In this document: positions 1 to 60,211 of the stretch, piece by piece
How positions within the stretch are numbered: position 1 is the first letter of the stretch
Layout: each line of letters begins with the position of its first letter
Source: Eukaryota sp. GEM-RC1
Lineage: Eukaryota
Direction of reading: 5' to 3'
NCBI GenBank assembly: GCA_040285855.1
Contig: JAUFOQ010000002.1
Coordinates: 3,348,001 to 3,412,000 of the forward strand
DNA: 64,000 nt
Notes under the pieces: model-generated
What the model was told of the DNA's origin: nothing
Seen by the model: the letters and a program-made list of their open reading frames with translations, nothing else
Databases searched by the model: none
Program-made: the position numbers and the translations under genes

Positions 1-866
1 TTATTCTAAATGTAATAGACAATAACACTACAGTGTACATACATCTAGTAATCAATATCCTCAAAGTCCAGATTGCCTAACTGGAAATTTTCACCTACCT
101 TATCTTCATAATGTCTGCCAAGAGAAAATAAAGCGCTAGATACAGAAGTGACCATACCTTTAAAGATAACAAACACGATTCGATTTTTCCAAAATGTAAG
201 ATCAAAAGTCCTAGATGTTTTTTCTTTTACAATTTCATAGTTTGTACGAAGGTTACCTTATTGGGTGCCGAATAAACATGTTTCATCTTCACAAAGATTT
301 CAAGTAATAAGTAATAGTAATCTTCTGTCCATCACCGAACAACTTACCTAAAATTGAATTAAAATATCTGTGAATTAAACAAAAGGTGAGAAAAAGTAAC
401 TACAATGTACTGTAATTGGCCATTCAATATCAGATTCCATCAGATGCCATTTCATACTACCGACATACTTCAGACATTCAAAATGTTTCAAAAGGTGTTT
501 TTGGAGTTTCTTAACAGCAAATTTCAAAGCAGTGATACATCGTTCTGGCATTTCACATATACCAGCTCGGAAACAAGTTTGCCAAAGGTCAGGTGAAATT
601 AACGACAATTCTTTCATGGCATCACTAGTAGCTTAATTTGACCTGATTCATGTTGCATTTTTGATGATCTTTGCTTTTATCGAACAAAACTGGAACTCAA
701 CAACATTAAAGCAAACTCGTCATGCTAAAAAATTGTTATTCAGGAAAAGTAACTCATCTGCTTCACTCTCTCCCCTGTACTTATCTATAACTCATGTGGA
801 AGCTTTACCAATTCGAACTGACTTTCTTGCATTTTTGTTATCAGTGGATCCTGCTGCATTGAACAA

Positions 867-1383
867 CGTTTTGGTAAACGAAGAGCTGATGTTATAGTTC
901 CATCAGTTAATGATGAACTAACTGTTGTTGATGTGATTACTGTGGATGTTTGCAAAAAAAGTGCATTCAAGGATGCTAAAACTGAAGTTTCGCCACTGAA
1001 TTCTTCAGAACAATACAAGAGAAACAAATATGATGAACCACTGACTGCTCTCAAACATATTAGACATGTTGAGTACAAATTATGTCCTTTGCAATTTCAA
1101 TTTATGGTCGACTTGGTAGAGATGCTCTTTGTTTTCTCTCTGATTTTGAGAAAGTGGTCAAAAAGAATGAACAAGAAATTTGATTTCAAATTTTGGTTGA
1201 ATCGTATTGTTTTTACAATATTTAAAACAATTCCTATCATGATTTCAAAAGCTCTATTAGCTCTCAGTGTTTTTATGAAGAAAAAGCTGATGTGAGTTTT
1301 AATGGCAATGATTGTTGCTTTAATGATATTGAATTCTAGTATTTGTGTTTATTTTAATGTTTTTAATAAAGGGGATGTAGAAA
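867..1383 (+). mobile_element. Post-amplification 5'-truncated lineage-A retro-insertion
   Basis: 11-bp TSD gcattgaacaa at 856-866 and 1384-1394. Encodes FGKRRADVIVP..VVDVITVDVCKK through NDIEF*, then AATAAA. Absent from most units. Confidence 0.9.
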
Positions 1384-6060: not shown

Positions 6061-6150
6061 CAAAAGGTGAGAAAAGTAACTACAATGTACTGTAATTGGC
6101 CATTCAATATCAGATTCCATCAGATGCCATTTCATACTACCGACATACTT

Positions 6151-18320: not shown

Positions 18321-18898
18321 CTTTATTAAAAACATTAAAATAAACACAAATACTAGAATTCAATATCATTAAAGCAACAATCATTGCCATTAAAACTCAC
18401 ATCAGCTTTTTCTTCATAAAAACACTGAGAGCTAATAGAGCTTTTGAAATCATGATAGGAATTGTTTTAAATATTGTAAAACAATACGATTCAACCAAAA
18501 TTTGAAATCAAATTTCTTGTTCATTCTTTTTGACCACTTTCTCAAAATCAGAGAGAAAACAAAGAGCATCTCTACCAAGTCGACCATAAATTGAAATTGC
18601 AAAAGGACATAATTTGTACTCAACATGTCTAATATGTTTGAGAGCAGTCAGTGGTTCATCATATTTGTTTCTCTTGTATTGTTCTGAAGAATTCAGTGGA
18701 GAAACTTCATTTTTAGCATCCTTGAATGCACTTTTTGCAAACATCCACAGTAATCACATCAACAACGGTTAGTTCATCATTAACTGATGGAACTATTACA
18801 TCAGCTCTTCGTTTACCAAAAGTCTTATCAGAATCACTATTTTTGAATTATTGGTTTCCAGTGATCTCAACAGGTGCTCAACGAAAGATTCGATTTTA
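18321..18898 (-). mobile_element. Reverse-oriented 5'-truncated lineage-A retro-insertion, single copy
   Basis: The minus strand reads KIESFVEHLLRSLETNNS..FGKRRADVIVP..NDIEF* plus the same 3' UTR and AATAAA as 867-1383. It replaces gttcc of the unit, so there is a small target deletion and no TSD. Confidence 0.87.
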
Positions 18899-20565: not shown

Positions 20566-21975
20566 GGCCAAAGAAAAAATCCAGCGTTCTCAAATTGTTT
20601 AATCGATTTGAAGGACAGTTCTTCAGTTGCTTTGATCAACCAAATTCCACAGATTTATGGATTTTTGTTGAACGATCATCAATGAACTGCAACATTCATA
20701 CTTCGATGTTTCTTGTGGCCCTCTAATTTACCTAATGATCTTCAATGTAAATCTCTTGAAATCAAAAATTCACAAAATAGTGATTCTGATAAGACTTTTG
20801 GTAAAAGAAGAGCTGATGTAACAGTTCCATCAATCAATGATGAACTAACGGTTGTTGTTGTAATTACTGTGGATGTTTGCAAAGAACGTGCATTTAAGGA
20901 TGCTAAAATGAAGTGTCTCCGCTTGAATTGTCAGAACAATACAAGGGAAACAAGTATGATGTACCATTGACTGCTCTCAAACATACTAGACATGTTGAGT
21001 ACGAGTTATGTCCTTTGCAATTTCAATTTATGGGGCCAAATCACAAAATCCAGCGTTCTCAAATTGTTTAATCGATTTGAAGGACAGTTCTTCAGTTGCT
21101 TTGATCAACCAAATTCCACAGATTTATGGATTTTTGTTGAACGATCATCAATGAACTGCAACATTCATACTTCGATGTTTCTTGTGGCCCTCTAATTTAC
21201 CTAATGATCTTCAATGTAAATCTCTTGAAATCAAAAATTCACAAAATAGTGATTCTGATAAGACTTTTGGTAAAAGAAGAGCTGATGTAACAGTTCCATC
21301 AATCAATGATGAACTAACGGTTGTTGTTGTAATTACTGTGGATGTTTGCAAAGAACGTGCATTTAAGGATGCTAAAATGAAGTGTCTCCGCTTGAATTGT
21401 CAGAACAATACAAGGGAAACAAGTATGATGTATTATTGACTGCTCTCAAACATACTAGACATGTTGAGTACGAATTATGTCCTTTTGCAATTTCAATTTA
21501 TGGGGCCAAATCACAAAATCCAGCGTTCTCAAATTTTTTTAATCGTATTGAAGGACAGTTCTTCAGTTGCTTTGATCAACCAAATTCCACAGATTTATGG
21601 ATTTTTGTTGAACGATCATCAATGAACTGCAACATTCATACTTCGATGTTTCTTGTGGCCCTCTAATTTACCTAATGATCTTCAATGTAAATCTCTTGAA
21701 ATCAAAAATTCACAAAATAGTGATTCTGATAAGACTTTTGGTAAAAGAAGAGCTGATGTAATAGTTCCATCAATCAATGATGAACTAACGGTTGTTGTTG
21801 TACTTACTGTGGATGTTTGCAAAGAACGTGCATTTAAGGATGCTAAAAATGAAGTGTCTCCGCTTCATTTGTCAGAACAATACAAGGGAAACAAGTATGA
21901 TGTACCATTGACTGCTCTCAAACATACTAGACATGTTGAGTACGAATTGTGTCCTTTTGCAATTTCAATTTATGG
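20566..21975 (+). repeat. Three tandem copies of a ~470 bp sub-repeat of the RLE-coding segment
   Basis: Novel junction tttatgg|ggccaaatcacaaaatcc at ~21034 and ~21504. Unit length 3541 is about 2600 + 2x470. Confidence 0.92.
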
Positions 21976-23588
21976 TCAACTTGGTAAAAGCTCTCTATTT
22001 TCTCTCTGATTTTGAGAAAGTTGCCAAAAACAGAATGAACAAGAAATTTGATTTTATGTTTCAGTTTTCAGTTTTGGTTGAATCGTATCGTTTTTACAAT
22101 ATTTACAACAATTCCTATTATGATATCAAAAGCTCTTTTAGCTCTCAGTATTTTTTATGACGAAAAAGCTTATGTGAGTTTTAATGGCATTGACTGTTGC
22201 TTTAATGTTATTGAGTTCTAGTTCTTCTGTATATCTTCTCAAAAAGTTGATAAAGGCTCATCCAGAGATTTTGGACTTGCACGTGGCAGGAATTTGATCT
22301 CTGACAGCATCATTAATACAAGTTCCATAAGTAATGAAATTATTGCAACTCAAAAGGTGAGAAAAAGTAACTAATTTACCACATTTACATTGAAGATCAT
22401 TAGATTAATAGTATTTGTGTTTATCTTAGTGTTTTTGTTCCATAAACAAAGAGTTGCTTTAATGATATTGAGATCTAGTTTTTGTGTTTTTCTTCCTGTT
22501 TTTGTTCCATAAAGTGGATAAAGACTCAGCAAGAGATTTAGGACTTACACATCTGACAGCATTGAGAATGCAAGTTTGAATTGTGGTTACAACTCAAAAG
22601 GAAAAACGGGGTTTATGATCAATCAGTGAAATCAATGCATTTGCAGAAATTCATAACTAACAGACACTAACTAAAGTATCTAAACTATGGTTCTTCTGTC
22701 CATTTTTTGAAACGAATTATTTATTCTAAATGTAATAGACAATAACACTACAGTGTACATACATCTAGTAATCAATATCCTCAAGGTCCAGATTGCCTAA
22801 CTGGATATTTTCACCTACCTTATCTTCATAATGTCTGCCAAGAGAAAATAAAGCGCTAGATACAGAAGTGACCATACCTTTAAAGATAACAAACACGATT
22901 CGATTTTTCCAAAATGTAAGATCAAAAGTCCTAGATGTTTTTTCTTTTACAATTTCATAGTTTGTACGAAGGTTACCTTATTGGGTGCCGAATAAACATG
23001 TTTCATCTTCACAAAGATTTCAAGTAATAAGTAATAGTAATCTTCTGTCCATCACCGAACAACTTACCTAAAATTGAATTAAAATATCTGTGAATTAAAC
23101 AAAAGGTGAGAAAAAGTAACTACAATGTACTGTAATTGGCCATTCAATATCAGATTCCATCAGATGCCATTTCATACTACCGACATACTTCAGACATTCA
23201 AAATGTTTTAAAAGGTGTTTTTGGAGTTTCTTAAGAGCAAATTTCAAAGCAGTGATACATCGTTCTGGCATTTCACATATACCAGCTCGGAAACAAGTTT
23301 GCCAAAGGTCAGGTGAAATTAACGACAATTCTTTCATGGCATCACTAGTAGCTTAATTTGACCTGATTCATGTTGCATTTTTGATGATCTTTGCTTTTAT
23401 CGAACAAAACTGGAACTCAACAACATTAAAGCAAACTCGTCATGCTAAAAAATTGTTATTCAGGAAAAGTAACTCATCTGCTTCACTCTCTCCCCCCTGT
23501 ACTTATCTATAACTCATGTGGAAGCTTTACCAATTCGAACTGACTTTCTTGCATTTTTGTTATCAGTGGATCCTGCTGCATTGAACAA

Positions 23589-24106
23589 CGTTTTGGTAAA
23601 CGAAGAGCTGATGTTATAGTTCCATCAGTTAATGATGAACTAACTGTTGTTGATGTGATTACTGTGGATGTTTGCAAAAAGTGCATTCAAGGATGCTAAA
23701 ACTGAAGTTTCGCCACTGAATTCTTCAGAACAATACAAGAGAAACAAATATGATGAACCACTGACTGCTCTCAAACATATTAGACATGTTGAGTACAAAT
23801 TATGTCCTTTTGCAATTTCAATTTATGGTCGACTTGGTAGAGATGCTCTTTGTTTTCTCTCTGATTTTGAGAAAGTGGTCAAAAAAGAATGAACAAGAAA
23901 TTTGATTTCAAATTTTGGTTGAATCGTATTGTTTTTACAATATTTAAAACAATTCCTATCATGATTTCAAAAGCTCTATTAGCTCTCAGTGTTTTTTATG
24001 AAGAAAAAGCTGATGTGAGTTTTAATGGCAATGATTGTTGCTTTAATGATATTGAATTCTAGTATTTGTGTTTATTTTAATGTTTTTAATAAAGGGGATG
24101 TAGAAA
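23589..24106 (+). mobile_element. Second copy of the 867-1383 insertion (same site, same TSD)
   Basis: Same junctions, gcattgaacaa|cgttttgg ... gatgtagaaa|gcattgaacaa. Confidence 0.9.
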
Positions 24107-33330: not shown

Positions 33331-34184
33331 AGACTTTTGGTAAAAGAAGAGCTGATGTAATAGTTCCATCAGTCAATGATGAACTAACGGTTGTTGTTGT
33401 AATTACTGTGGATGTTTGCAAAGAACGTGCATTTAAGGATGCTAAAAATGAAGTGTCTCCGCTTCATTTGTCAGAACAATACAAGGGAAACAAGTATGAT
33501 GTACCATTGACTGCTCTCAAACATACTGGACATGTTGAGTACGAATTATGTCCTTTTGCGATTTCAATTTAAGGTCAACTTGGTAAAATGCTCTCTATTT
33601 TCTCTCTGATTTTGAGAAAGTTGCCAAAAACAGAATGAACAAGAAATTTGATTTTATGTTTCAGTTTGGTTGAATCGTATCGTTTTTACAATATTTACAA
33701 CAATTCCTATTATGATATCAAAAGCTCTTTTAGCTCTCAGTATTTTTTTATGACGAAAAAGCTTATGTGAGTTTTAATGGCATTGACTGTTGCTTTAATG
33801 TTATTGAGTTCTAGTTCTTGTGTATATCTTCTCAAAAGTTGATAAAGGTTCATCCAGAGATTTAGGACTTGCACATGGCAGGAATTTGATCTCTGACAGC
33901 ATCATTAATACAAGTTCCATAAGTAATGAAATTATTGCAACTCAAAAGGTGAGAAAAAGTAACTAATTTACCCAGTGTTGTACCATGACGGCCATAACTG
34001 CCATGCGCGCCATGCGTTCCATGCGTCCATAGGCGCATGGCATTTTCTGATTATGGCCGTGTTGTTATGGCGTGTTAACACGTGTTGTTATTCCAACAAT
34101 GACACTGTACTACATGAGCATGTACAGTTGTTCTATGATACGTATACTTAAAGAATGTTATTTATTAAACCTATATAAAGAGCT

Positions 34185-34547
34185 CTAATAGTCATAATCG
34201 CTATCCATGCTGTATTCTATCCATCTTTGTTTCATAAGACCAGCTTGTTTCTGGAATTTGGAATTAAAGTGCACATACACTAACTTCTTAGCTCTTTCGG
34301 TGGTGAGCCGGTTCCTTCTGTTTGAGTGAATAAAAGAATAGGAACTCCAAACCCTTTCACATGCTCCTGCTGAACATACTTGTGAGATTAACTTAATGGC
34401 AAGCTTCTTGACTACACAGGCTGTTGTACCATTTGATTTCCAACATGTAACAGGAGTAACAGAATCATCAAAATCAGAACTCGATTCAAATTGATTGTGA
34501 AATGAATTGTATGAGAACAGACTTGCACTTACAAACCAATAATACAT
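34185..34547 (-). pseudogene. hAT transposase C-terminal dimerisation-domain remnant
   Basis: WKS..LAIKLISQVCSAGACERVWSSYSFIHSNRRNRLTTERAKKLVYVHFN matches the hAT C-terminal S..CER.(W/F)S..RNRL motif. Confidence 0.88.
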
Positions 34548-34640
34548 ACTGAGATATATCGATATCAGGGCTGTCTAAAAATTAATTTCCCCGTAAATTA
34601 ATTTTTAATTTTGGTTCCATAAAATACCGTAAATTGAGAA

Positions 34641-34840
34641 TTACGGAAATTAATTTACGGAACTCCAACATTACGGAAATTAATTTACGGTTTCAGATTA
34701 TTACGGAAATTAATTTACGGAACTTGAACATTACGGAAATTAATTTACGGTTTTAGATTGTTACGGAAATTAATTTACGGTTTCAAATTATTACGGAAAT
34801 TAATTTACGGAACTTGAACATTACGGAAATTAATTTACGG
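34641..34840 (+). repeat. Left subterminal array: 7 x ttacggaaattaatttacgg at an exact 30-bp period
   Basis: Copies start at 34641, 34671, 34701, 34731, 34761, 34791 and 34821, with variable 10-nt spacers. Confidence 0.95.
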
Positions 34841-34988
34841 AACGTATTACCAATAAAATCAATACACATCAAAATCAATCTCAATTATTCAAAAATGTAG
34901 ATAAAGGTGTTGTTATCTATTGGCTTTACAGACAATTGTCCAATCCATGAGAGCAGGTAGTAATTGCGAATTTGTATAGTCCTTCTTC

Positions 34989-36639
34989 ATGACTAGAGTA
35001 TCCAAACACCACGCTACTATAGCTCACTTCTTCACCCAACATGATAGGTCTGATATCATTCCTTCAGGAAATCACACACGTGAGGGATCTCTCTTCTACA
35101 CATGCAAGATATGTGACCCTGTCTATGGTTTGTGGATTTTAAAAGGTAAGGGTTATTCTAATTTGACCTATCACTTGAAAGCCAAGCATTCTGAGGAGGT
35201 AGTCATCTTCAATGAGCAATTCACCGATTACTAATTATACTAATGTTGTTGCATCAAAAAGGCACGTAATATATTTGGATGGGTAGAGAAGTACATTGAG
35301 CAGCAACTCCCATTATCTTTTGTTGGACATCCTATGGAAAGAAAATACTCAAAACTTGAACCTATTTCTCGAACCACCTTGTCTAAGTACGTTACTCGTC
35401 TATACACTGAAGTTTTGCAAGAAATGCAATCTTTGTTACCACCTAGCTTTGGTCTTATGTACGACGGTTGGAAACATGGACCTACGTCAACAGAATATGT
35501 TGGAATATTTGCATGGGTTGCCAAAGATCACAGACCTATTCTGTTGGGAATGGTTCCTTTTAAGTATGAAAATGATGAAGAAGAATCTGGAATCTTAGAT
35601 ACTCGCAGAGTATTGCTTGGTGCTGATAATTATGAATGTATTATTTCCACAATCCTATCTGCTTTTGGACGCGAATTTCAAAACATCGATTTCGTTGTAG
35701 CTGACAATGCTGAAGTAAACTCAAGGCTTTCTCGTCAAAATGATGTACCAATGATAGGATGCTACAGCCACAGATTAGCCCTAGAAATTAAGCTCTTTCT
35801 GGAACCTTTTAAACCGCTACTTGAAAAATTGATGCTTTGTTCACCACAATGCGCACTGTTAAATGTGCAATGATCTTAAAGCATCTTACTTCTTTAAAGC
35901 CGGTTAAAAGAAACACTACTAGATGGTCTTCCACTTTTGAAATGCTAAAACGCTACCTCAGATTTCTTGAACTTGATGTATTTGCCAGGTTTGATTCTCA
36001 TATCAGACGTATGTTACCTTCACCTGATGAAGATCGTACTGCTTCATTATTGTTCTTCGATCTACAGAAAATGGAGCTTTTCACTCAAAGACTCCAGACA
36101 CAGGGATTGAATCTGTTATCTGGTCAAAGAATTTTTGATTTATTTCACACAGAATTTCCTGACCTTACACACTACACTGCTCGAACTTCCGAGATAGTGA
36201 ATGCTCCTGTTTTTGAATCAGCTGTAGGAAAAGTTTTGGAAGGAAATGAATTCCTGTTATCAGAACCTGAAAAAACTATTCTTATCCCCTTTTAAAAGAT
36301 GCTGCAGCTGGTGCTAGACGAACTTCTAGATGCTTACAAACTGAGCTTGACAATGTTGATACCATTGCTAACGGGCCTGTATCCGACTATAGAGATTTAA
36401 GTTGGATACCATGTACATCCAATGATGTCGAAAGGCTCTTTTCTCGCTCAAAGAGAACAATTGGTGATTACAGATGCTCCATGTCTTCCGCCACTCTTGA
36501 AAAACAGCTTTTTTTGTTGTACAACCGACATTATTGGGGTGTTGAAACTATCCAAAAGGTACTGGTTTTGCATCAGAATGATGATGATGATTCGGAGGAC
36601 GAACAATCTACATCAGATGTTGATTTGGATTCTGATTAA
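34989..36639 (+). pseudogene. hAT transposase, all domains present but frameshifted at ~35.23-35.27 kb, ~35.84 kb and ~36.29 kb
   Basis: BED finger YTCKIC..GYSNLTYHLKAKH; KARNIFGW..LPLSFV; YDGW (D1); VADNA (D2); GCYSHRL (CxxH); NTTRWSSTFEMLKRY; WIPCTSNDVERLFSRSK (E); stop TAA at 36637-36639. Confidence 0.92.
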
Positions 36640-37351
36640 CATACCAGTATTCTTTGCTTTTTCCTATTTTTAGTCATGTCATAGTCTTTCTCTTTTGTTA
36701 TAATCTTCGCTCTCAATACACTTCATAACATTCTTGTTCTCAATAGTTTCTTCTTAGATCATCTCAAGAGATTGAGTTTGAGTACTGGCTTTGCACTTCA
36801 CAGACGATATAGTTCTTGAACAATCAGAGTTTGACAGGCACATCTTATTCGTAGTCAAACAGTGCAATGAACTTTATTTGCAACAGAAATGGATGTGTTT
36901 TACAATACAAGCAATGCCGTAAAAGCTGAAAGTCTGTCAATCTATCAGATCAGTGGGAAGTCGATTAGTCATAGATTCAGGAGAGAATGAAACATGCGTC
37001 TGACATTGTGTTTGAAGTTTCTAACATGAAACCCGTTGTGCTAAGCAGAAAGATCAAGTTTCAAGCACACGAATGTAATTGCAAATGATGCTGGAAATGG
37101 AAGATCAGAACCTGGAAGACTTAAGTGTGGATAGCTACAAGATAGAAGGACACGTTACAGTGTTTGAGCATATGTATAAGGAAAGTATGGAAATACAAAT
37201 GATTTTTTTTGTGACAAATCACAAGTTCCAATTTTGTCCAGCTCTGTAGACTAGATAATTATTGTTTGATAGTAAGGTGTATTGAAAATTTGGGTATTGA
37301 AATTTCAGTATTCATGCGCCTCCAGGACGTCATTTAGGGCTTTCTGATAAA

Positions 37352-37578
37352 TTACGGAAATTAATTTACGGTTTTGAATTGTTACGGAAATTAATTTACG
37401 GCTAAATCTATTACGGAAATTAATTTACGGTTTTGAATTGTTACGGAAATTAATTTACGGCTAAATCTATTACGGAAATTAATTTACGGTTTTGAATTGT
37501 TACGGAAATTAATTTACGGGTTGGATTGGTTACGGAAATTAATTTATGGTTTAGTGTCATCGCAAAATTAATTTACGG
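37352..37578 (+). repeat. Right subterminal array: ~8 copies of the same 20-mer at a 29-30 bp period
   Basis: Copies at 37352, 37382, 37411, 37441, 37470, 37500, 37530 and a degenerate one at ~37560. Spacers mostly alternate ttttgaattg / ctaaatcta. Confidence 0.93.
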
Positions 37579-39445
37579 TTCAATTTTTAGACAGCCCTGA
37601 TCGATATGTCTTCATTTACGTGATATCTACTAACTTGGTTGGATATCGAAAATATTGCCAATGCGCCATGCGTATTTTCGCGCCATGCGTCCGAAAGCCA
37701 TGACCCATACGCCATAGGCGCATGGCATTTGAAAATTCGGTTATGGTACAACACTGAATTTACCACATTTACATTGAAAATCATTAGGTTAATAGTATTT
37801 GTGTTTATCTTGGTGTTTTTGTTCCATAAACAAAGAGTTGCTTTAATGATATTGAGATCTAGTTTTTGTGTTTTTCTTCCTGTTTTTGTTTCATAAAGTG
37901 GATAAAGACTCAGCAAGAGATTTAGGACTTACACATCTGACAGCATTGAGACTGCAAGTTTGAATTGTGGTTACAACTCAAAAGGAAAAACGGGGTTTAT
38001 GATCAATCAGTGAAATCAATGCATTTGCAGAAATTAATAACTAACATACACTAACTAAAGTATCTAAACTATGGTTCTTCTGTCCATCACCGAACAACTT
38101 ACCTAAAATTGAATCAAAATATCTGTGTATTAAACAAATGGTGAGAAAAAGTAACTACAATGTACTGTAATTGGCCATTCAATATCAGATTCCATCAGAT
38201 GCCATTTCATATTACCGACATACTTCAGACATTCAAAATGTTTTAAAAGGTGTTTTTGGAGTTTCTTAAGAGCAAATTTCAAAGCGGTGATACATCGTTC
38301 TGGCATTTCACATATACCAGCTCGGAAACAAGTTTGCCAAAGGTCAGGTGAAATTGACGACAATTCTTCCATTGCATCACTAGTAGCTTAATTTGACCTG
38401 ATTCGTGTTACATTTTGATGATCTTTGTATTTATCGAACAAAAACTGGAACTCAACAACATTAAAGCAAACTCGTCATGCTAAAAATTTGTTATTAAGGA
38501 AAAGTAACTCATCTGCTTCGCTCTCTCCCCCTGTACTTATCTATAACTCCTGTGGAAGCTTTACCAATTCGAACTGACTTTCTTGCATTTTTTGTTATCA
38601 GTGGATCCTGGTGCATTGAACAATCACATCTTCATCTTGGTGGTATTGGTTTCACTTCGTCTAAATGGTGGACCAAATCTACTTTCATTGGTGGTGGTAA
38701 GAATTTTGTCTTTGAGTTCTGTAGACGTTACCCAAGTCGAGAAAATCTTCTTGTTTCGACAATTAGTTTTTTCTTGGTAAATTTGAGATCCGAATTATCG
38801 CTAATTTCACCTAGCCTCTGACAAACTTGTTTCCCAGCAGATATTTGTGAAATACCAGAACGATGTGTCACTTCTTCAATTTTTGGTCCTAAGAAACTCC
38901 AAAAACACCTTCTAAAACATTTTGAATGTCTGGATTTTCAAATTCGACTTGGCTCGGTTTTGGTTGAATCGTATTGTTTTTACAATATTTAAAACAATTC
39001 CTATCATGATTTCAAAAGCTCTATTAGCTCTCAGTGTTTTTTATGAAGAAAAAAGCTGATGTGAGTTTTAATGGCAATGATTGTTGCTTTAATGATATTG
39101 AGTTCTAGTTCTTCTGTATATCTTCTCAAAAAGTTGACAAAGGCTCATCCAGAGATTTAGGACTTGCACGTGGCAGGAATTTGATCTCTGACAGCATCAT
39201 TAATACAAGTTCCATAAGTAATGAAATTATTGCAACTCAAAAGGTGAGAAAAAGTAACTAATTTACCACATTTACATTGAAGATCATTAGGTTAATAGTA
39301 TTTGTGTTTATCTTGGTGTTTTTGTTCCATAAACAAAGAGTTGCTTTAATGATATTGAGATCTAGTTTTTGTGTTTTTCTTCCTGTTTTTGTTCCATTAA
39401 ATTTAAAAGTGGATAAAGACTCAGCAAGAGATTTAGGACTTACAC

Positions 39446-40703
39446 TAGAGCTGGGCACAGACTGACTAGACTAGACTAAGACTACAACAACTGACTACCG
39501 ACTAGACTACAGACTACACCAATAGACTATAGACTAGACTAAGACTAAAGTAACTGACTACCGACTAGACTACAGACTACAGTATTAGACTACAGACTAG
39601 ACTAAGACTACACCACCAGACTACGGACTAGACTAAGACGAGAGAAATACACTAAATAGTAGACTAAATAGTTTTGTCCGAACATGAATTTATAACAAGA
39701 AATTCTACTGAAATACTAGAAGTCGAATACATCGAAGCCACCATCAGCCCAAGATTTTAAACAAACAAGTGCTCTCAGCGTTTCAGCTTCCATGGAAGCT
39801 CTTCGTGAAACAATTGTCTGACCTGCAAGAGAAAACAGTCGTTCACATGCCACAGATGTTCCTTGGCAACTAAGAAAATCCCTTGCAAGTCTTGCAAGTG
39901 TAGGAAATGTTGATTCATTGCTCTTCCACCACAGCAAAACGTCAGTTTTCCAACAGACATTGGGGTAACTCATATAGGTTTCCAACTCTGCGCTTTGGTT
40001 AGGCCTTTCCGACTGTTCCTGTGTTTCAAGAAATCCTTCACTATTGGATGATACAACAACAACATCAGATTCGGCTTTGTAATAAGTATCAATAACAAGG
40101 TCCAGCATTTCTTTGAATTCCCGCGGAGTATCAAATCGATGTAGGTTGGCTAACCTACATCTTGGATCTAAAACTGCACAGACATATGCAGAAAAGTCAT
40201 AAACATCACCTAGGTACTTAAGCAATACAGTTTCAATTTTGCTACAAGCGAAGGAAATGAGAGCTTCTTAGGGACAGACAATGTGGGTTGAGAGTTCACC
40301 AAGTAGTTCTGCCAGTTTCTGTGGCTGTCAAGGTGCAGCTTAAGAACAGTTTGGGACGTTGACAAAGCAAATACTGTAGTTTTTCCATCCAACGCACAAA
40401 GGAGGCAGTGCTTCTGATTGCCACTTGCTGCTGGCTTATAGAATTGGTGACCGTTCCATCGCTGTTTTGGAGACAATGGTTGTAGAGAAAGTCTGGGCAG
40501 TTTTTCGGGAGGTTCAGACATTATGTTAAAAATAGTAGACTAATGATCACACTAATTTATTATGAACAGACTACAGACTAGACTACTGACTTAATGAACA
40601 GACTACGGACTAGACTAAGACTAAGTGAGTAGACTAAGATTTAGACTAAAAGCTTAGTCTAGTCCGTAGTCAGTAGACTAGTCTAGTCGAATGCCCAGCT
40701 CTA
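39446..40703 (-). mobile_element. Internally deleted hAT transposon (1258 bp)
   Basis: 8-bp TSD acttacac (39438-39445, 40704-40711); 12-bp TIR tagagctgggca; dense GACTA-based subterminal repeats at both ends. Confidence 0.95.
39716..40521 (-). pseudogene. hAT transposase deletion derivative: N-terminal BED-like finger joined to the C-terminal dimerisation domain, central D..D core missing
   Basis: 40521-40210 reads W..F..HCLLC..TSQTVLKLHLDSH. 40225-39716 reads LDPR..ELETYM..DVLLWWKSNESTFPTLARLARDFLSCQGTSVACERLFSLAG. Confidence 0.9.
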
Positions 40704-43700: not shown

Positions 43701-46700
43701 ATTTCATAGTTTGTACGAAGGTTACCTTATTGGGTGCCGAATAAACATGTTTCATCTTCACAAAGATTTCAAGTAATAAGTAATAGTAATCTTCTGTCCA
43801 TCACCGAACAACTTACCTAAAATTGAATTAAAATATCTGTGAATTAAACAAAAGGTGAGAAAAAGTAACTACAATGTACTGTAATTGGCCATTCAATATC
43901 AGATTCCATCAGATGCCATTTCATACTACCGACATACTTCAGACATTCAAAATGTTTCCAAAAGGTGTTTTTGGAGTTTCTTAACAGCAAATTTCAAAGC
44001 AGTGATACATCGTTCTGGCATTTCACATATACCAGCTCGGAAACAAGTTTGCCAAAGGTCAGGTGAAATTAACGACAATTCTTTCATGGCATCACTAGTA
44101 GCTTAATTTGACCTGATTCATGTTGCATTTTTGATGATCTTTGCTTTTATCGAACAAAAACTGGAACTCAACAACATTAAAGCAAACTCGTCATGCTAAA
44201 AAATTGTTATTCAGGAAAAGTAACTCATCTGCTTCGCTCTCTCCCCCTGTACTTATCTATAACTCCTGTGGAAGCTTTACCAATTCGAACTGACTTTCTT
44301 GCATTTTTGTTATCAGTGCATCCTGCTGCATTGAACAATCACATCTTCATCTTGGTGTTATTGGTTTCACTTCGTCTAAATGGTGGACCAAATCTACTTT
44401 CATTGGTGGTGGTAAGAATTTTGTCTTTGAGTTCTGTAGACGTTACCCAAGTCAAGAAAATCTTCTTGTTTCGACAAGTAGTGTTTTCTTGGTAAATTTG
44501 AGATCCTAATTATCGCTAATTTCACCTGGCCTCTGGCAAACTTGTTTCCCAGCAGATATTTGTGAAATACCGGAACGATGTGTCACTTCTTTAATTTTTG
44601 GTCCTAAGAAACTCCAAAAACACCTTCTAAAACATTTTGAATGTCTGGATTTTCAAATTCGACTTGGCTCGGTTTTGGTTGAATCGTATTGTTTTTACAA
44701 TATTTAAAACAATTCCTATCATGATTTCAAAAGTCTGAGTGTTTTTTATGAAGAAAAAGCAGATGTGAGTTTTAATGGCAATGATTGTTGTTTTAATGAT
44801 ATTGAGTTAAAATCATAAAAAACATATAGGAAAAAAAAACTTGGCTCGGCCAAAGAAAAAAATCCAGCGTTCGCAAATTGTTTAATCGATTTGAAGGACA
44901 GTTCTTCAGTTGCTTTGATCAACCAAATTCCACAGATTTATGGATTGTTGTTGAACGATCATCAATGAACTGCAACATTTATACTTCGATGTTTCTTGTG
45001 GCCCTCTAATTTACCTAATGATCTTCAATGTAAATCTCTTGAAATCAAAAATTCACAAAATAGTGATTCTGATAAGACTTTTGGTAAAAGAAGAGCTGAT
45101 GTAATAGTTCCATCAGTCAATGATGAACTAACGGTTGTTGTTGTAATTACTGTGGATGTTTGCAAAGAACGTGCATTTAAGGATACTAAAAATGAAGTGT
45201 CTCCGCTTGAATTGTCAGAACAATACAAGGGAAACAAGTATGATGTACCATTGACTGCTCTCAAACATACTAGACATGTTGAGTACGAATGTCCTTTTGC
45301 AATTTCAATTTATGGTCAACTTGGTAAAAAGCTCTCTATTTTCTCTCTGATTTTGAGAAAGTTGCCAAAAAACAGAATGAACAAGAAATTTGATTTTATG
45401 TTTCAGTTTGGTTGAATCGTATCGTTTTTACAATATTTACAACAATTCCTATTATGATATCAAAAACTCTTTTAGCTCTCAGTATTTTTTATGACGAAAA
45501 AGCTTATGTGAGTTTTAATGGCATTGACTGTTGCTTTAATGTTATTGAGTTCTAGTTCTTCTGTATATCTTCTCAAAAAGTTGATAAAGGCTCATCCAGA
45601 GATTTAGGACTTGCACATGGCAGGAATTTGATCTCTGACAGCATCATTAATACAAGTTCCATAAGTAATGAAATTATTGCAACTCAAAGGTGAGAAAAAG
45701 TAACTAATTTACCACATTTACATTGAAGATCATTAGGTTACTAGTATTTGTGTTTATCTTAGTGTTTTTGTTCCATAAACAAAGAGTTGCTTTAATGATA
45801 TTGAGTTCTAGTTTTTGTGTTTTTCTTCCTGTTTTTGTTCCATAAAGTGGATAAAGACTCAGCAAGAGATTTAGGACTTACACATCTGACAGCATTGAGA
45901 ATGCAAGTTTGAATTGTGGTTACAACTCAAAAGGAAAAACGGGGTTTATGATCAATCAGTGAAATCAATGCATTTGCAGAAATTGATAACTAACAGACAC
46001 TAACTAAAGTATCTAAACTATGGTTCTTCTGTCCATTTTTTTTGGAAACGAATTATTTATTCTAAATGTAATAGACAATAACACTACAGTGTACATACAT
46101 CTAGTAATCAATATCCTCAAAGTCCAGATTGCCTAACTGGAAATTTTCACCTACCTTATCTTCATAATGTCTGCCAAGAGAAAATAAAGCGCTAGATACA
46201 GAAGTGACCATACCTTTAAAGATAACAAACACGATTCGATTTTTCCAAAATGTAAGATCAAAAGTCCTAGATGTTTTTTCTTTTACAATTTCATAGTTTG
46301 TACGAAGGTTACCTTATTGGGTGCCGAATAAACATGTTTCATCTTCACAAAGATTTCAAGTAATAAGTAATAGTAATCTTCTGTCCATCACCGAACAACT
46401 TACCTAAAATTGAATTAAAATATCTGTGAATTAAACAAAAGGTGAGAAAAAGTAACTACAATGTACTGTAATTGGCCATTCAATATCAGATTCCATCAGA
46501 TGCCATTTCATACTACCGACATACTTCAGACATTCAAAATGTTTCAAAAGGTGTTTTTGGAGTTTCTTAACAGCAAATTTCAAAGCAGTGATACATCGTT
46601 CTGGCATTTCACATATACCAGCTCGGAAACAAGTTTGCCAAAGGTCAGGTGAAATTAACGACAATTCTTTCATGGCATCACTAGTAGCTTAATTTGACCT

Positions 46701-49700
46701 GATTCATGTTGCATTTTTGATGATCTTTGCTTTTATCGAACAAAACTGGAACTCAACAACATTAAAGCAAACTCGTCATGCTAAAAAATTGTTAATCAGG
46801 AAAAGTAACTCATCTGCTTCACTCTCTCCCCCCTGTACTTATCTATAACTCCTGTGGAAGCTTTACCAATTCGAACTGACTTTCTTGCATTTTTGTTATC
46901 AGTGGATCCTGCTGCATTGAACAATCACATCTTCATCTTGGTGGTATTGGTTTCACTTCGTCTAAATGGTGGACCAAATCTACTTTCATTGGTGGTGGTA
47001 AGAATTTTGTCTTTGAGTTCTGTAGACGTTACCCAAGTCAAGAAAATCTTCTTGTTTCGACAAGTAGTGTTTTCTTGGTAAATTTGAGATCCTAATTATC
47101 GCTAATTTCACCTGGCCTCTGGCAAACTTGTTTTCCAGCAGATATTTGTGAAATACCGGAACGATGTGTCACTTCTTTAATTTTTGGTCCTAAGAAACTC
47201 CAAAAACACCTTCTAAAACATTTTGAATGTCTGGATTTTCAAATTCGACTTGGCTCGGTTTTGGTTGAATCGTATTGTTTTTACAATATTTAAAACAATT
47301 CCTATCATGATTTCAAAAGTCTGAGTGTTTTTATGAAGAAAAAAGCAGATGTGAGTTTTAATGGCAATGATTGTTGCTTTAATGATATTGAGTTAAAATC
47401 ATAAAAAACATATAGGAAAAAAAAAACTTGGCTCGGCCAAAGAAAAAAAATCCAGCGTTCGCAAATTGTTTAATCGATTTGAAGGACAGTTCTTCAGTTG
47501 CTTTGATCAACCAAATTCCACAGATTTACGGATTGTTGTTGAACGATCATCATTGAACTGCAACATTTATACTTCGATGTTTCTTGTGGCCCTCTAATTT
47601 ACTTAATGATCTTCAATGTAAATCTCTTGAAATCAAAAATTCACAAAATAGTGATTCTGATAAGACTTTTGGTAAAAGAAGAGCTGATGTAATAGTTCCA
47701 TCAGTCAATGATGAACTAACGGTTGTTGTTGTAATTACTGTGGATGTTTGCAAAGAACGTGCATTTAAGGATGCTAAAAATGAAGTGTCTCCGCTTGAAT
47801 TGTCAGAACAATACAAGGGAAACAAGTATGATGTACCATTGACTGCTCTCAAACATACTAGACATGTTGAGTACGAATGTCCTTTTGCAATTTCAATTTA
47901 TGGTCAACTTGGTAAAAAGCTCTCTATTTTCTCTCTGATTTTGAGAAAGTTGCCAAAAACAGAATGAACAAGAAATTTGATTTTTATGTTTCCAGTTTGG
48001 TTGAATCGTATCGTTTTACAATATTTACAACAATTCCTATTATGATATCAAAAGCTCTTTTAGCTCTCAGTATTTTTTATGACGAAAAAGCTTATGTGAG
48101 TTTTAATGGCATTGACTGTTGCTTTAATGTTATTGAGTTTTAGTTCTTCTGTATATCTTCTCAAAAAGTTGATAAAGGCTCATCCAGAGATCTAGGACTT
48201 GCACATGGCAGGAATTTGATCTCTGACAGCATCATTAATACAAGTTCCATAAGTAATGAAATTATTGCAACTCAAAGGTGAGAAAAAGTAACTAATTTAC
48301 CACATTTACATTGAAGATCATTAGGTTACTAGTATTTGTGTTTATCTTAGTGTTTTTGTTCCATAAACAAAGAGTTGCTTTAATGATATTGAGTTCTAGT
48401 TTTTGTGTTTTTCTTCCTGTTTTTGTTCCATAAAGTGGATAAAGACTCAGCAAGAGATTTAGGACTTACACATCTGACAGCATTGAGAATGCAAGTTTGA
48501 ATTGTGGTTACAACTCAAAAGGAAAAACGGGGTTTATGATCAATCAGTGAAATCAATGCATTTGCAGAAATTGATAACTAACAGACACTAACTAAAGTAT
48601 CTAAACTATGGTTCTTCTGTCCATTTTTTTGAAACGAATTATTTATTCTAAATGTAATAGACAATAACACTACAGTGTACATACATCTAGTAATCAATAT
48701 CCTCAAAGTCCAGATTGCCTAACTGGAAATTTTCACCTACCTTATCTTCATAATGTCTGCCAAGAGAAAATAAAGCGCTAGATACAGAAGTGACCATACC
48801 TTTAAAGATAACAAACACGATTCGATTTTTCCAAAATGTAAGATCAAAAGTCCTAGATGTTTTTTCTTTTACAATTTCATAGTTTGTACGAAGGTTACCT
48901 TATTGGGTGCCGAATAAACATGTTTCATCTTCACAAAGATTTCAAGTAATAAGTAATAGTAATCTTCTGTCCATCACCGAACAACTTACCTAAAATTGAA
49001 TTAAAATATCTGTGAATTAAACAAAAGGTGAGAAAAAGTAACTACAATGTACTGTAATTGGCCATTCAATATCAGATTCCATCAGATGCCATTTCATACT
49101 ACCGACATACTTCAGACATTCAAAATGTTTCAAAAGGTGTTTTTGGAGTTTCTTAACAGCAAATTTCAAAGCAGTGATACATCGTTCTGGCATTTCACAT
49201 ATACCAGCTCGGAAACAAGTTTGCCAAAGGTCAGGTGAAATTAACGACAATTCTTTCATGGCATCACTAGTAGCTTAATTTGACCTGATTCATGTTGCAT
49301 TTTTGATGATCTTTGCTTTTATCGAACAAAAACTGGAACTCAACAACATTAAAGCAAACTCGTCATGCTAAAAAATTGTTATTCAGGAAAAGTAACTCAT
49401 CTGCTTCGCTCTCTCCCCCCTGTACTTATCTATAACTCCTGTGGAAGCTTTACCAATTCGAACTGACTTTCTTGCATTTTTGTTATCAGTGCATCCTGCT
49501 GCATTGAACAATCACATCTTCATCTTGGTGTTATTGGTTTCACTTCGTCTAAATGGTGGACCAAATCTACTTTCATTGGTGGTGGTAAGAATTTTGTCTT
49601 TGAGTTCTGTAGACGTTACCCAAGTCAAGAAAATCTTCTTGTTTCGACAAGTAGTGTTTTCTTGGTAAATTTGAGATCCTAATTATCGCTAATTTCACCT

Positions 49701-52700: not shown

Positions 52701-55700
52701 GATTGTTGTTGAACGATCATCAATGAACTGCAACATTTATACTTCGATGTTTCTTGTGGCCCTCTAATTTACCTAATGATCTTCAATGTAAATCTCTTGA
52801 AATCAAAAATTCACAAAATAGTGATTCTGATAAGACTTTTGGTAAAAGAAGAGCTGATGTAATAGTTCCATCAGTCAATGATGAACTAACGGTTGTTGTT
52901 GTAATTACTGTGGATGTTTGCAAAGAATGTGCATTTAAGGATACTAAAAATGAAGTGTCTCCGCTTGAATTGTCAGAACAATACAAGGGAAACAAGTATG
53001 ATGTACCATTGACTGCTCTCAAACATACTAGACATGTTGAGTACGAATGTCCTTTTGCAATTTCAATTTATGGTCAACTTGGTAAAAAGCTCTCTATTTT
53101 CTCTCTGATTTTGAGAAAGTTGCCAAAAACAGAATGAACAAGAAATTTGATTTTATGTTTCAGTTTGGTTGAATCGTATCGTTTTTACAATATTTACAAC
53201 AATTCCTATTATGATATCAAAAGCTCTTTTAGCTCTCAGTATTTTTTATGACGAAAAAGCTTATGTGAGTTTTAATGGCATTGACTGTTGCTTTAATGTT
53301 ATTGAGTTCTAGTTCTTCTGTATATCTTCTCAAAAAGTTGATAAAGGCTCATCCAGAGATTTAGGACTTGCACATGGCAGGAATTTGATCTCTGACAGCA
53401 TCATTAATACAAGTTCCATAAGTAATGAAATTATTGCAACTCAAAAGGTGAGAAAATGTAACTAATTTACCACATTTACATTGAAGATCATTAGGTTACT
53501 AGTATTTGTGTTTATCTTAGTGTTTTTGTTCCATAAACAAAGAGTTGCTTTAATGATATTGAGTTCTAGTTTTTGTGTTTTTCTTCCTGTTTTTGTTCCA
53601 TAAAGTGGATAAAGACTCAGCAAGAGATTTAGGACTTACACATCTGACAGCATTGAGAATGCAAGTTTGAATTGTGGTTACAACTCAAAAGGAAAAACGG
53701 GGTTTATGATCAATCAGTGAAATCAATGCATTTGCAGAAATTGATAACTAACAGACACTAACTAAAGTATCTAAACTATGGTTCTTCTGTCCATTTTTTT
53801 GAAACGAATGATTTATTCTAAATGTAATAGACAATAACACATCAGTGTAAATACATCTAGTAATCAATATCCTCAAAGTCCAGATTGCCTAACTGGAAAT
53901 TTTCACCTACCTCATCTGCCAAGAGAAAATAAAGCGCTAGATACAGAAGTGACCTTTAAAGATAACAAACACGATTCGATTTTTCCAAAATGTAAGATCA
54001 AAAGTCCTAGATGTTTTTTCTTTTACAATTTCATAGTTTGTACGAAGGTTACCTTATTGGGTGCCGAATAAACATGTTTCATCTTCACAAAGATTTCAAG
54101 TAATAAGTAATAGTAATCTTCTGTCCATCACCGAACAACTTACCTAAAATTGAATTAAAATATCTGTGAATTAAACAAAAGGTGAGAAAAAGTAACTACA
54201 ATGTACTGTAATTGGCCATTCAATATCAGATTCCATCAGATGCCATTTCATACTACCGACATACTTCAGACATTCAAAATGTTTCAAAAGGTGTTTTTGG
54301 AGTTTCTTAAGAGCAAATTTCAAAGCAGTGATACATCGTTCTGGCATTTCACATATACCAGCTCGGAAACAAGTTTGCCAAAGGTCAGGTGAAATTAACG
54401 ACAATTCTTTCATGGCATCACTAGTAGCTTAATTTGACCTGATTCATGTTGCATTTTTGATGATCTTTGCTTTTATCGAACAAAAACTGGAACTCAACAA
54501 CATTAAAGCAAACTCGTCATGCTAAAAAATTGTTATTCAGGAAAAGTAACTCATCTGCTTCGCTCTCTCCCCCCTGTACTTATCTATAACTCCTGTGGAA
54601 GCTTTACCAATTCGAACTGACTTTCTTGCATTTTTGTTATCAGTGCATCCTGCTGCATTGAACAATCACATCTTCATCTTGGTGGTATTGGTTTCACTTC
54701 GTCTAAATGGTGGACCAAATCTACTTTCATTGGTGGTGGTAAGAATTTTGTCTTTGAGTTCTGTAGACGTTACCCAAGTCAAGAAAAATCTTCTTGTTTC
54801 GACAAGTAGTGTTTTCTTGGTAAATTTGAGATCCTAATTATCGCTAATTTCACCTGGCCTCTGGCAAACTTGTTTCCAAGCAGATATTTGTGAAATACCG
54901 GAACGATGTGTCACTTCTTTAATTTTTGGTCCTAAGAAACTCCAAAAACACCTTCTAAAACATTTTGAATGTCTGGATTTTCAAATTCGACTTGGCTCGG
55001 TTTTGGTTGAATCGTATTGTTTTTACAATATTTAAAACAATTCCTATCATGATTTCAAAAGTCTGAGTGTTTTTTATGAAGAAAAAGCAGATGTGAGTTT
55101 TAATGGCAATGATTGTTGCTTTAATGATATTGAGTTAAAATCATAAAAAACATATAGGAAAAAAAAACTTGGCTCGGCCAAAGAAAAAAATCCAGCGTTC
55201 GCAAATTGTTTAATCGATTTGAAGGACAGTTCTTCAGTTGCTTTGATCAACCAAATTCCACAGATTTACGGATTGTTGTTGAACAATCATCATTGAACTG
55301 CAACATTTATACTTCGATGTTTCTTGTGGCCCTCTAATTTACTTAATGATCTTCAATGTAAATCTCTTGAAATCAAAAATTCACAAAATAGTGATTCTGA
55401 TAAGACTTTTGGTAAAAGAAGAGCTGATGTAATAGTTCCATCAGTCAATGATGAACTAACGGTTGTTGTTGTAATTACTGTGGATGTTTGCAAAGAACGT
55501 GCATTTAAGGATGCTAAAAATGAAGTGTCTCCGCTTGAATTGTCAGAACAATACAAGGGAAACAAGTATGATGTACCATTGACTGCTCTCAAACATACTA
55601 GACATGTTGAGTACGAATGTCCTTTTGCAATTTCAATTTATGGTCAACTTGGTAAAAAGCTCTCTATTTTCTCTCTGATTTTGAGAAAGTTGCCAAAAAC

Positions 55701-57675
55701 AGAATGAACAAGAAATTTGATTTTATGTTTCAGTTTGGTTGAATCGTATCGTTTTTACAATATTTACAACAATTCCTATTATGATATCAAAAGCTCTTTT
55801 AGCTCTCAGTATTTTTTATGACGAAAAAGCTTATGTGAGTTTTAATGACATTGACTGTTGCTTTAATGTTATTGAGTTTTAGTTCTTCTGTATATCTTCT
55901 CAAAAAGTTGATAAAGGCTCATCCAGAGATTTAGGACTTGCACATGGCAGGAATTTGATCTCTGACAGCATCATTAATACAAGTTCCATAAGTAATGAAA
56001 TTATTGCAACTCAAAAGGTGAGAAAAAGTAACTAATTTACCACATTTACATTGAAGATCATTAGGTTACTAGTATTTGTGTTTATCTTAGTGTTTTTGTT
56101 CCATAAACAAAGAGTTGCTTTAATGATATTGAGTTCTAGTTTTTGTGTTTTTCTTCCTGTTTTTGTTCCATAAAGTGGATAAAGACTCAGCAAGAGATTT
56201 AGGACTTACACATCTGACAGCATTGAGAATGCAAGTTTGAATTGTGGTTACAACTCAAAAGGAAAAACGGGGTTTATGATCAATCAGTGAAATCAATGCA
56301 TTTGCAGAAATTGATAACTAACAGACACTAACTAAAGTATCTAAACTATGGTTCTTCTGTCCATTTTTTTGAAACGAATTATTTATTCTAAATGTAATAG
56401 ACAATAACACTACAGTGTACATACATCTAGTAATCAATATCCTCAAAGTCCAGATTGCCTAACTGGAAATTTTCACCTACCTTATCTTCATAATGTCTGC
56501 CAAGAGAAAATAAAGCGCTAGATACAGAAGTGACCATACCTTTAAAGATAACAAACACGATTCGATTTTTCCAAAATGTAAGATCAAAAGTCCTAGATGT
56601 TTTTTCTTTTACAATTTCATAGTTTGTACGAAGGTTACCTTATTGGGTGCCGAATAAACATGTTTCATCTTCACAAAAATTTCAAGTAATAAGTAATAGT
56701 AATCTTCTGTCCATCACCGAACAACTTACCTAAAATTGAATTAAAATATCGAGTGAATTAAACAAAAGGAAAAAGTAACTACAATGTACCGTAATTGGCC
56801 ATTCAATATCAGATTCCATCAGATGCCATTTCATACTACCGACATACTTCAGACATTCAAAATGTGTTAAAAGGTGTTTTTGGAGTTTCTTAAGAGCAAA
56901 TTTCAAAGCAGTGATACATCGTTCTGGCATTTCACATATACCAGCTCGGAAACAAGTTTGCCAAAGGTCAGGTGAAATTAACGACAATTCTTTCATGGCA
57001 TCACTAGTAGCTTAATTTGACCTGATTCATGTTGCATTTTTGATGATCTTTGCTTTTATCGAACAAAAACTGGAACTCAACAACATTAAAGCAAACTCGT
57101 CATGCTAAAAAATTGTTAATCAGGAAAAGTAACTCATCTGCTTCGCTCTCTCCCCCCTGTACTTATCTATAACTCCTGTGGAAGCTTTACCAATTCGAAC
57201 TGACTTTCTTGCATTTTTGTTATCAGTGGATCCTGCTGCATTGAACAATCACATCTTCATCTTGGTGGTATTGGTTTCACTTCGTCTAAATGGTGGACCA
57301 AATCTACTTTCATTGGTGGTGGTAAGAATTTTGTCTTTGAGTTCTGTAGACGTTACCCAAGTCAAGAAAATCTTCTTGTTTCGACAAGTAGTTTTTTCTT
57401 GGTAAGTTTGAGATCCGAATTATCGCTAATTTCACCTAGCCTCTGGCAAACTTGTTTCCCAGCAGATATTTGTGAAATACCAGAACGATGTGTCACTTCT
57501 TCAATTTTTGGTCCTAAGAAACTCCAAAAACACCTTCTAAAACATTTTGAATGTCTGGATTTTCAAATTCGACTTGGCTCGGTTTGGTTGAATCGTATTG
57601 TATTTACAATATTTAAAACAATTCCTATCATGATTTCAAAAGCTCTATTAGCTCTCAGTGTTTTTTATGAAGAAA

Positions 57676-59293: not shown

Positions 59294-59389
59294 TGCCGTT
59301 AGTTGATTGATCTACACATACTAACCATGGCTTTCAACGGTTTAGATAGTACAATCAGAGAAATGTTGAAGTCTAGCGAAATTCGTTCA

Positions 59390-60136: not shown

Positions 60137-60211
60137 CCTACAGCTAGTCTTTATACAAAAACACCATCATCTATCTTCTGTTTTACTCATTATTGAAACT
60201 TTTCACACCTA

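Follow-up and report, generated by a model that had tools for sequence, protein, structure and literature searches.

How does a pile of dead retrotransposons become a satellite? The question is raised by a stretch of 64,000 nucleotides from Eukaryota sp. GEM-RC1 (assembly GCA_040285855.1, contig JAUFOQ010000002.1, positions 3,348,001 to 3,412,000 of the forward strand), which as a whole is called the window below. An earlier note, made from the letters alone, had seen there a macrosatellite with a unit of about 2.6 kb, this unit being a frozen nest of 3' ends of non-LTR (long terminal repeat) retrotransposons that had been amplified at least 19-fold into a homogenised array. We describe a real tandem array with a unit that is a mosaic of dead non-LTR 3' ends, likely grown by unequal recombination and likely functionless, and we regard this account, taken as a whole, as probable. 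At its best reading the array is a recombination-amplified transposon-mosaic satellite situated in a transposon graveyard and still accreting insertions.

The array and its unit

Positions 1-57675 form a tandem repeat of head-to-tail units with a period of 2,570-2,600 bp, as seen by self-BLAST and tiling; hence the macrosatellite is confirmed by self-comparison. Tiling on a reference unit, U15, yields 19 units or part-units spanning base 1 to 57675. Unit-derived DNA accounts for 50,130 of the 57,675 bp, that is, 19.4 unit-equivalents, in agreement with the proposed degree of amplification in the assembled sequence, and the remaining 7,545 bp are later insertions. The large-scale features are as follows.

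1-57675, no strand assigned: tandem array of ~19 unit-equivalents of ~2.58 kb, its left end lying beyond the window (self-BLAST, tiling)
21045-30130, plus strand: zone with additional ~470-bp sub-repeats and 4,543-bp variant units (self-BLAST, tiling)
31002-31506, minus strand: inverted unit sequence of ~505 bp (tiling)

A rearranged middle, 18.3-40.7 kb, separates two blocks of regular structure, one at about 1.4-18.3 kb and one at about 40.7-57.7 kb. The middle contains ~470-bp sub-repeats (two additional ones in U08, three in U09 and two in U10), two 4.5-kb variant units, the ~505-bp inversion, one shortened unit and three hAT transposons, and it carries most of the later insertions, so the array cannot be called homogenised over its whole span. 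Apart from the 505-bp inversion, a single orientation is kept throughout. The GC content is 32-39% throughout. Judged from the assembled sequence, the tandem array is real, its copy number being that of the assembly and possibly off by a few units.

The segments of the reference unit are listed below; they come from three retrotransposon families denoted A, B and C, with A(+) for the main sense copy of A. TSD stands for target-site duplication, UTR for untranslated region, RT for reverse transcriptase and RLE for restriction-like endonuclease; P0006 and the like are database proteins.

45876-48463, plus strand: reference unit U15, 2,588 bp, the basis of all unit coordinates
45935-46036, minus strand: family B 3' end and UTR, the right half of B in its own sense; 93% protein identity to the P0015 C-terminus and 93% DNA identity to the B copy in the flank
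46037-46376, minus strand: family C 3' end (RLE C-terminus, UTR, A-tract) inside B; 59% to P0037 over 61 aa, with a TSD and empty sites
46377-46436, minus strand: 5' half of family B; 86% to P0015 over 21 aa
46521-46670, minus strand: inverted thumb piece of family A, forming an inverted repeat of ~140 bp with A(+) at 84-85% identity
46728-46770, minus strand: inverted 3' tip of family A (unit self-BLAST, 3'-end comparison)
46771-47258, plus strand: 5'-truncated start of A(+), RT end plus thumb region, broken by frameshifts and stops; P0006 matched by tblastn at E 1e-52
47259-47425, plus strand: 3' stub of a young A subfamily, ending in an A-tract and flanked by an 11-bp TSD (47248-47258, 47426-47436)
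47426-48167, plus strand: continuation of A(+) through linker, RLE (Val in place of the second acidic residue), C-terminus and UTR, the CCHC being deleted
48168-48326, minus strand: CCHC segment of family A in inverted orientation, corresponding almost to what A(+) lacks
48327-48434, plus strand: two short A-family 3' stubs, the second of which, with the sequence downstream, is a 70-82% paralog of the junction between the A(+) end and the inverted CCHC segment

When eight homologs, three of which (P0003, P0007, P0012) carry the RT domain RVT_1, are used as tblastn queries, 2,104 of the 2,588 unit bases are covered at E<0.01. Manual segmentation, which includes UTRs and internal paralogs, assigns 2,486 bases and leaves 102 unassigned.

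Each unit contains three nested insertions with TSDs. Family C splits B and is flanked by an exact TSD of 12 bp (46025-46036 and 46377-46388), with an A-tract of 7-8 nt. A(+) is interrupted by the young stub, which has an A-tract of 9 nt and likewise an exact TSD, here of 11 bp. Finally, B, which has no tail, sits within the inverted CCHC piece of A with a 7-bp TSD. Among 300 random position pairs, searched as a null, repeats of at least 10 bp were found in none and repeats of at least 7 bp in 27, hence the 11-12 bp TSDs are beyond chance, whereas the 7-bp ones, taken alone, are not. Empty B sites, that is, sites without C, are seen in unit U12 (38076-38087) and in the right flank near 63490. 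By inspection, seven distinct target sites share no motif, and none of them is telomeric or of the spliced-leader RNA (SL-RNA) type.

Most of the parsing given in the earlier note thus stands: the splitting of A(+) by a tiny stub, the inverted A piece (the thumb piece, 140 bp, 85%) and the further 3'-UTR stubs are all present, and C splits B as claimed, except that the supposed poly-A tail is a short A-tract. The nesting of B in the inverted A piece is an addition to its list. On the other hand, a description of the unit by nested inserts covers only part of its history, as DNA-level deletion, inversion and an older duplication have shaped it as well.

The CCHC segment is lost from A(+), and almost exactly that segment is found inverted directly behind the A(+) 3' end. 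The joint of an A 3' end with an inverted CCHC segment occurs twice per unit, at 70-82% identity and with a common lesion, hence an older internal duplication. In every unit, the deletion at 47600-47640 and the inverted piece at 48168-48326 are nearly complementary in element coordinates. Such lesions could have arisen either in one scrambled element or through complementary deletions of long inverted repeats between sense and antisense copies. Twin priming is a misfit, since it would put the inverted piece 5' of the forward part, and here it is situated 3' of the tail. That two A 3' ends meet the CCHC region of A at the same base might suggest insertion specific to that site, but this was rejected, as the common lesion implies one duplicated junction.

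The RT core is absent from the array, and the second acidic residue of RLE is Val in all 17 units that span the position. The pattern combining CCHC and RLE (REL) is found in none of the 114 unit reading frames, and the longest stop-free stretch is 126-149 aa in 5 of the 19 units checked. Lacking the RT core, and with neither the knuckle nor RLE intact, the unit is incapable of moving on its own; none of the units is predicted to encode a working RT or endonuclease, and by these marks the unit is dead. The CCHC plus RLE pattern, one of the hallmarks cited in the earlier note, is thus not seen in the unit frames, the knuckle having been deleted from A(+) and lying inverted behind it.

Source retrotransposons

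The fragments in the array feature 5' truncation, a 3' A-tract and TSDs of variable length. As the query for relatives we used a decayed element of the right flank (61908-62816, stops read as X). It retrieved 19 longer proteins, each bearing the label Eukaryota sp. TZLM1-RC or GEM-RC1, and in eight of them RVT_1 (PF00078) scores above the Pfam cut-off. The RT region of P0007 matched 150 proteins; among the matches listed (120), most are from the TZLM1-RC/GEM-RC1 lineage, and the others are about 26-34% identical. A full HMMER scan produced 10,599 hits at E<=0.001, and the best matches among solved structures (Protein Data Bank, PDB) are R2 proteins, E 2e-11, followed by L1. The C-terminal motifs of the relatives come in the order C-x-C-x7-H-x3-C, HD, E, RAD/RGD, D. 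Given the RT domain in the relatives and the order of CCHC and then RLE motifs, the source families A, B and C are identified as RLE-type non-LTR retrotransposons, in line with the similarity that the earlier note had expected of its stitched peptides. By RT motifs that we take to be those of the clade, membership in CRE is plausible rather than established.

Set against the CRE group (CRE1/2, SLACS, MoTeR, FoTeR) of PMC12857005 and PMC4640811, the present relatives, in which RT is followed by CCHC, HD, E, RAD/RGD and D, have the published order at a spacing near the published one. A relaxed REL pattern, loosened from PMC12857005, is seen in 54 of 128 proteins and in the flank copy, whereas the strict SLACS/CRE consensus, as printed there, is seen in none of the 128: R before HD is absent, and RAD replaces R/KPD, as in MoTeR. 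The clades CRE, R2, R4 and NeSL are characterized in PMC4640811 as mostly site-specific, unlike the present elements with their seven target sites lacking a common motif.

The labels TZLM1-RC and GEM-RC1 match isolates that PMC11316075 counts among the skoliomonad metamonads. The source lineage of the families is likely the skoliomonad metamonads, nothing finer, and RT-bearing relatives are abundant in this group. Six retrotransposon-derived frames of the window gave no Pfam family at a meaningful E-value. Of nine array-specific junction peptide motifs, six are not found in 263 database proteins, and the other three are general A-family motifs.

Several observations concern these families at large. 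In three proteomes labelled as skoliomonad, many RLE non-LTR open reading frames and fragments carry the annotation of hypothetical genes (P0001-P0099). P0018 is a kinase gene model with an A-family fragment as its N-terminus; its kinase matches, as well as a coagulase match on P0001, are incidental. The A-family copies with near-identical coding ends bear several different 3' UTRs (1320-1400, 18324-18380, 47380-47425, 48120-48170, 48327-48434). In particular, the UTR of the stub is unlike that of the young inserts, though its coding part is about 99% identical to theirs.

Tandem growth and later insertions

The nested junctions are at identical places in every unit spanning them, and no tail, TSD or variable 5' truncation is seen at any unit boundary. 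Thus, the units were copied at the DNA level.

The copies differ. Across the 19 units there are 99 substitution-variable columns, comprising 48 singletons, 50 columns common to at least two units, and one other. With the exception of U12, the pairwise distances are 0-16.5 per kb. The 16 near-full units make 15 haplotypes, and at least eight structural types of unit are observed, several with private TSD-flanked inserts. As 50 columns with single-nucleotide polymorphisms (SNPs) are shared and at least eight units are structurally distinct, expansion of one or two copies by the assembler is ruled out; by the earlier note, such an expansion would have refuted the macrosatellite. Instead, the proposed tandem amplification of a retrotransposon pile-up holds, with RLE-type 3' ends, TSDs, and copies that are real and distinct.

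In the four-gamete test, 243 of the 1,225 pairs of shared SNP columns are incompatible; by distance, the failures are 2/57 under 50 bp, 15/134 under 200, 90/412 under 600 and 136/622 beyond. An ordered block, U02-U05, matches U13-U16 at 0.8-1.9 substitutions per kb, 37.8 kb apart. This pattern fits unequal exchange combined with conversion, and so concerted evolution of the units, though polishing could contribute to it.

The array was also modified after its growth had started, by insertions and by the loss of sequence in one unit (TIR stands for terminal inverted repeat).

867-1383, plus strand: later A-family insert in U01, 11-bp TSD; copies at 23589-24106 and 28132-28649
18324-18898, minus strand: second later A-family insert, single copy, in U07; no clear TSD
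32956-33330, minus strand: family D 3' end, 7-bp TSD
33973-37756, no strand assigned: hAT DNA transposon in U11; TIRs, 8-bp TSD, PF05699 E 9.5e-9
34566-37599, plus strand: second hAT, nested in the first; perfect 18-bp TIR, 8-bp TSD, PF05699 E 1.4e-4
37927-39437, plus strand: divergent short unit U12; exact C-less site, unit positions ~1520-2264 missing
39446-40703, minus strand: third hAT, internally deleted; TIRs, 8-bp TSD, PF05699 E 3.6e-24

The A-type insert at 867 is now present in U01, U09 and U10, with all 515 aligned bases identical, and the insert at 18324 matches it at 493 of 497 bases. Five further inserts are single-copy. The nest is not frozen, then: one A insert has been re-amplified into three units, U12 has no C, sub-repeats have formed, and the five single-copy inserts have come on top.

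All three hAT inserts have TIRs, an 8-bp TSD and the hAT dimerisation domain. The inner one (34566-37599) features subterminal repeats and a transposase spread across three overlapping frames; it may be recent, and the frameshifts could be sequencing errors. Read in its own sense, the D 3' end runs on into 55 nt that are antisense to C and agree with the unit at 53 of 55 positions, and into AATAAA, with a short CT run replacing the A-tail. These 55 nt are likely a 3' transduction from a source copy elsewhere, as far as the sequence tells.

U12 diverges from the other units by 22.7-27.7 per kb, the highest values of all. The stretch missing from it is the one between two 91%-identical A 3' ends, hence direct repeats recombine in the array. 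It alone retains the flank-B base at unit position 110, and the outgroup bases at 1218, 1283 and 1448 are kept by U12 together with U19. Its stub differs from the young A subfamily at one base of about 146, besides two homopolymer gaps, so the same A subfamily contributed both before and after the amplification. We think it fairly probable that C was inserted after tandem growth had begun and then spread through the array.

The history may be arranged in four steps. At the first step, RLE-type elements A, B and C inserted into one another, presumably by target-primed reverse transcription, leaving 5'-truncated copies with A-tracts and TSDs of 7-12 bp, hallmarks that are visible in the unit. 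At the second step, the pile was scrambled into the structure now observed by deletions at the DNA level, by a local duplication of older date and by the CCHC piece being inverted or displaced. At the third step, unequal exchange or gene conversion would have duplicated the block, probably seeded by short direct repeats from A 3' ends, and later copied multi-unit blocks. At the fourth step, new A, D and hAT elements inserted into single units, as seen directly, one of them being re-amplified; C would probably have followed the same route before spreading.

Several points weigh against this account. The late arrival of C depends on the exact empty site and one linked ancestral base (unit position 110), and precise excision of C in U12 is possible. 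U12 shows 35 differences, of which 22 can be compared with an outgroup; these are 14 derived, 6 ancestral and 2 ambiguous. The SNP mosaics could partly reflect the polishing of near-identical copies during assembly. The array gives no view of the seeding event: it begins beyond the left edge of the window, and on the right it stops at a secondary hAT junction, and hence unequal exchange and rolling circle are not directly separated for the first step. Finally, the absence of function is a default, not a result.

Flank, alternative readings and known systems

At its right end the array passes, through a short microhomology joint, into a truncated hAT, with partial similarity continuing about 25 nt further (57660-57705). 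The flank contains two larger elements.

57676-59311, minus strand: 3'-truncated hAT-like transposase abutting the array end; DUF659 E 3e-5, below the curated cut-off
61350-63590, plus strand: unamplified nest of family B split by an A-related element, the A-related part being 62110-63230

The A-related element (62110-63230) retains the CCHC plus RLE pattern, and the flank B is 76-86% similar to P0015. Between the two features lie short repeats of the AAAATAC type where the truncated hAT has its 5' end (59370-59500), a ~300-bp element with hAT-like ends (59839-60135) and a TA-flanked, TIR-bounded element of about 950 bp (60210-61163), presumably Tc1/mariner- or pogo-like by its ends.

Pfam searches of 14 window frames gave only transposon families (hAT). 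The scans of the window for Rfam families and tRNAs gave none, and a host repeat of the rDNA, SL-RNA or tRNA type was rejected as far as those libraries reach. A search of the 64-kb window for a telomere tract found no double hexamers and 2+2 single ones; with junctions alike between units, the array does not look telomere-associated within the window.

Could the locus nevertheless do something for its host? In the broadest version, a free-living metamonad would use the array as its centromere, or else as a trap for insertions and a source of small RNAs, with active RLE families captured in both orientations and the captures re-amplified; we judge this improbable. Taken separately, a structural role of the array in (peri)centromeric or subtelomeric DNA, by binding CENH3 or by buffering the end of a chromosome, is a little less probable still. 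The window is so far gene-free, only transposon families having come up among the 14 frames, and according to a centromere atlas (10.64898/2026.09.17.752431), transposon-derived arrays of Rosa with monomers of 1.6-2.2 kb bind CENH3 and transposon-mosaic tandems occur in centromeres. Against this, the 64 kb contain no telomere tract and the array is short and much interrupted; moreover, with genomes that are 28-55% repetitive for the three Skoliomonas in Table 1 of PMC11316075, a gene-free 64 kb says little.

It is very doubtful that the array is a silencing locus, in which read-through RNA with A in both senses, B and C in antisense and a hairpin would feed small RNAs directed against the families. 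Each unit does hold about 1,505 bp of sense and 479 bp of antisense A, and the region 46515-47245 folds at -253 kcal/mol (z=-12.5), with none of 20 shuffles as stable. However, any inverted pair of related fragments would fold so, the arms here are only 84-85% identical, and Dicer, Argonaute and RNA interference (RNAi) are unmentioned in the main text of the lineage paper (PMC11316075).

It seems equally hard to credit that the unit was multiplied as an excised circle, through rolling-circle replication, or as a composite RNA that was retrotransposed repeatedly. A rolling circle also yields identical junctions and is discussed for the Bari1 arrays in PMC5932611, and, to judge by the D insert, neighbouring sequence is taken along here by 3' transduction. 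Nevertheless, a single burst is mismatched by units that differ by 0-2.8% in shared recombining haplotypes, by ordered block copies and by stepwise structural variants, while the composite RNA is at odds with boundaries free of tails, TSDs and variable truncation. An assembly artefact expanding one or two real copies, suggested by small indels lying in 197 of 199 cases at or beside homopolymer runs, as in long-read error (a lenient test in AT-rich DNA, with no null run), and by near-identical units (0 substitutions per kb for U09/U10 and 0.4 for U14/U16), is extremely unlikely in view of the shared columns, the 15 haplotypes and the structural types with private insertions and an inversion.

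The closest parallels of the recombination-amplified satellite are found elsewhere. In the telomeric arrays of Giardia (GilM/GilT), Drosophila (HeT-A/TART) and Cryptococcus (Cnl1), 5'-truncated non-LTR copies are arranged head-to-tail with variable truncation points, by repeated retrotransposition; Giardia belongs to the sister lineage of the named hits. By contrast, every unit of the present array has the same junctions, and thus it was copied at the DNA level.

The alpha-beta repeat at Hsp70B of Drosophila melanogaster, in the account of Bergman et al. 2006 (PMC1794594), is a tandem invader1-in-Dm88 nest, and duplication is given there for 13 of 23 transposon-dense regions. Like our array, it is a tandem array of a nested-transposon unit interrupted by later insertions. 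It differs in being made of LTR elements, lying beside heat-shock genes and producing non-coding RNA, as described there, whereas the present one consists of RLE non-LTR 3' ends in a protist, has about 19 units and shows no gene.

The centromere atlas, in its classification, places transposon-mosaic tandem arrays in class (iii), e.g. Linaria vulgaris, and reports CENH3 on Athila-derived arrays of Rosa canina (10.64898/2026.09.17.752431). The likeness lies in kb-sized monomers of transposon pieces, in one orientation and attributed to host recombination. Those arrays, however, are within centromeric satellite arrays, with CENH3 data for Rosa, whereas the present one has no surrounding short satellite.

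In the R1 array of Drosophila, as presented by McGurk and Barbash 2018 (PMC5932611), later deletions and transposon insertions rose in copy number, and unequal exchange is invoked. It is, as here, a non-LTR-derived array whose later insertions multiplied, but its unit is a single R1 that goes back to a double insertion and shows a TSD at the junction, and the array spans 0.5-1.3 Mb. The present unit is a scrambled mosaic of three families with no identifiable TSD at the head-to-tail junction.

The array is therefore a transposon-mosaic satellite of a kind already known from flies and plants. The literature searched gave no account of such arrays in skoliomonads or other metamonads; in the main text of PMC11316075 the terms 'satellite', 'centromer' and 'retro' have no hits, and its supplements could hold repeat tables. 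What the locus adds is a base-resolved case of the passage from transposon nest to satellite, in which part of the order of events can be read, from nesting and scrambling through tandem growth to later insertion and re-amplification. It extends the fly and plant pattern to a protist group for which no repeat description was found in that literature, and it points to a large, apparently non-site-specific radiation of RLE retrotransposons in skoliomonads. If the array were a centromeric or small-RNA locus, its importance would be much greater, as centromere or transposon-silencing DNA of this lineage would then become accessible at the sequence level for the first time.

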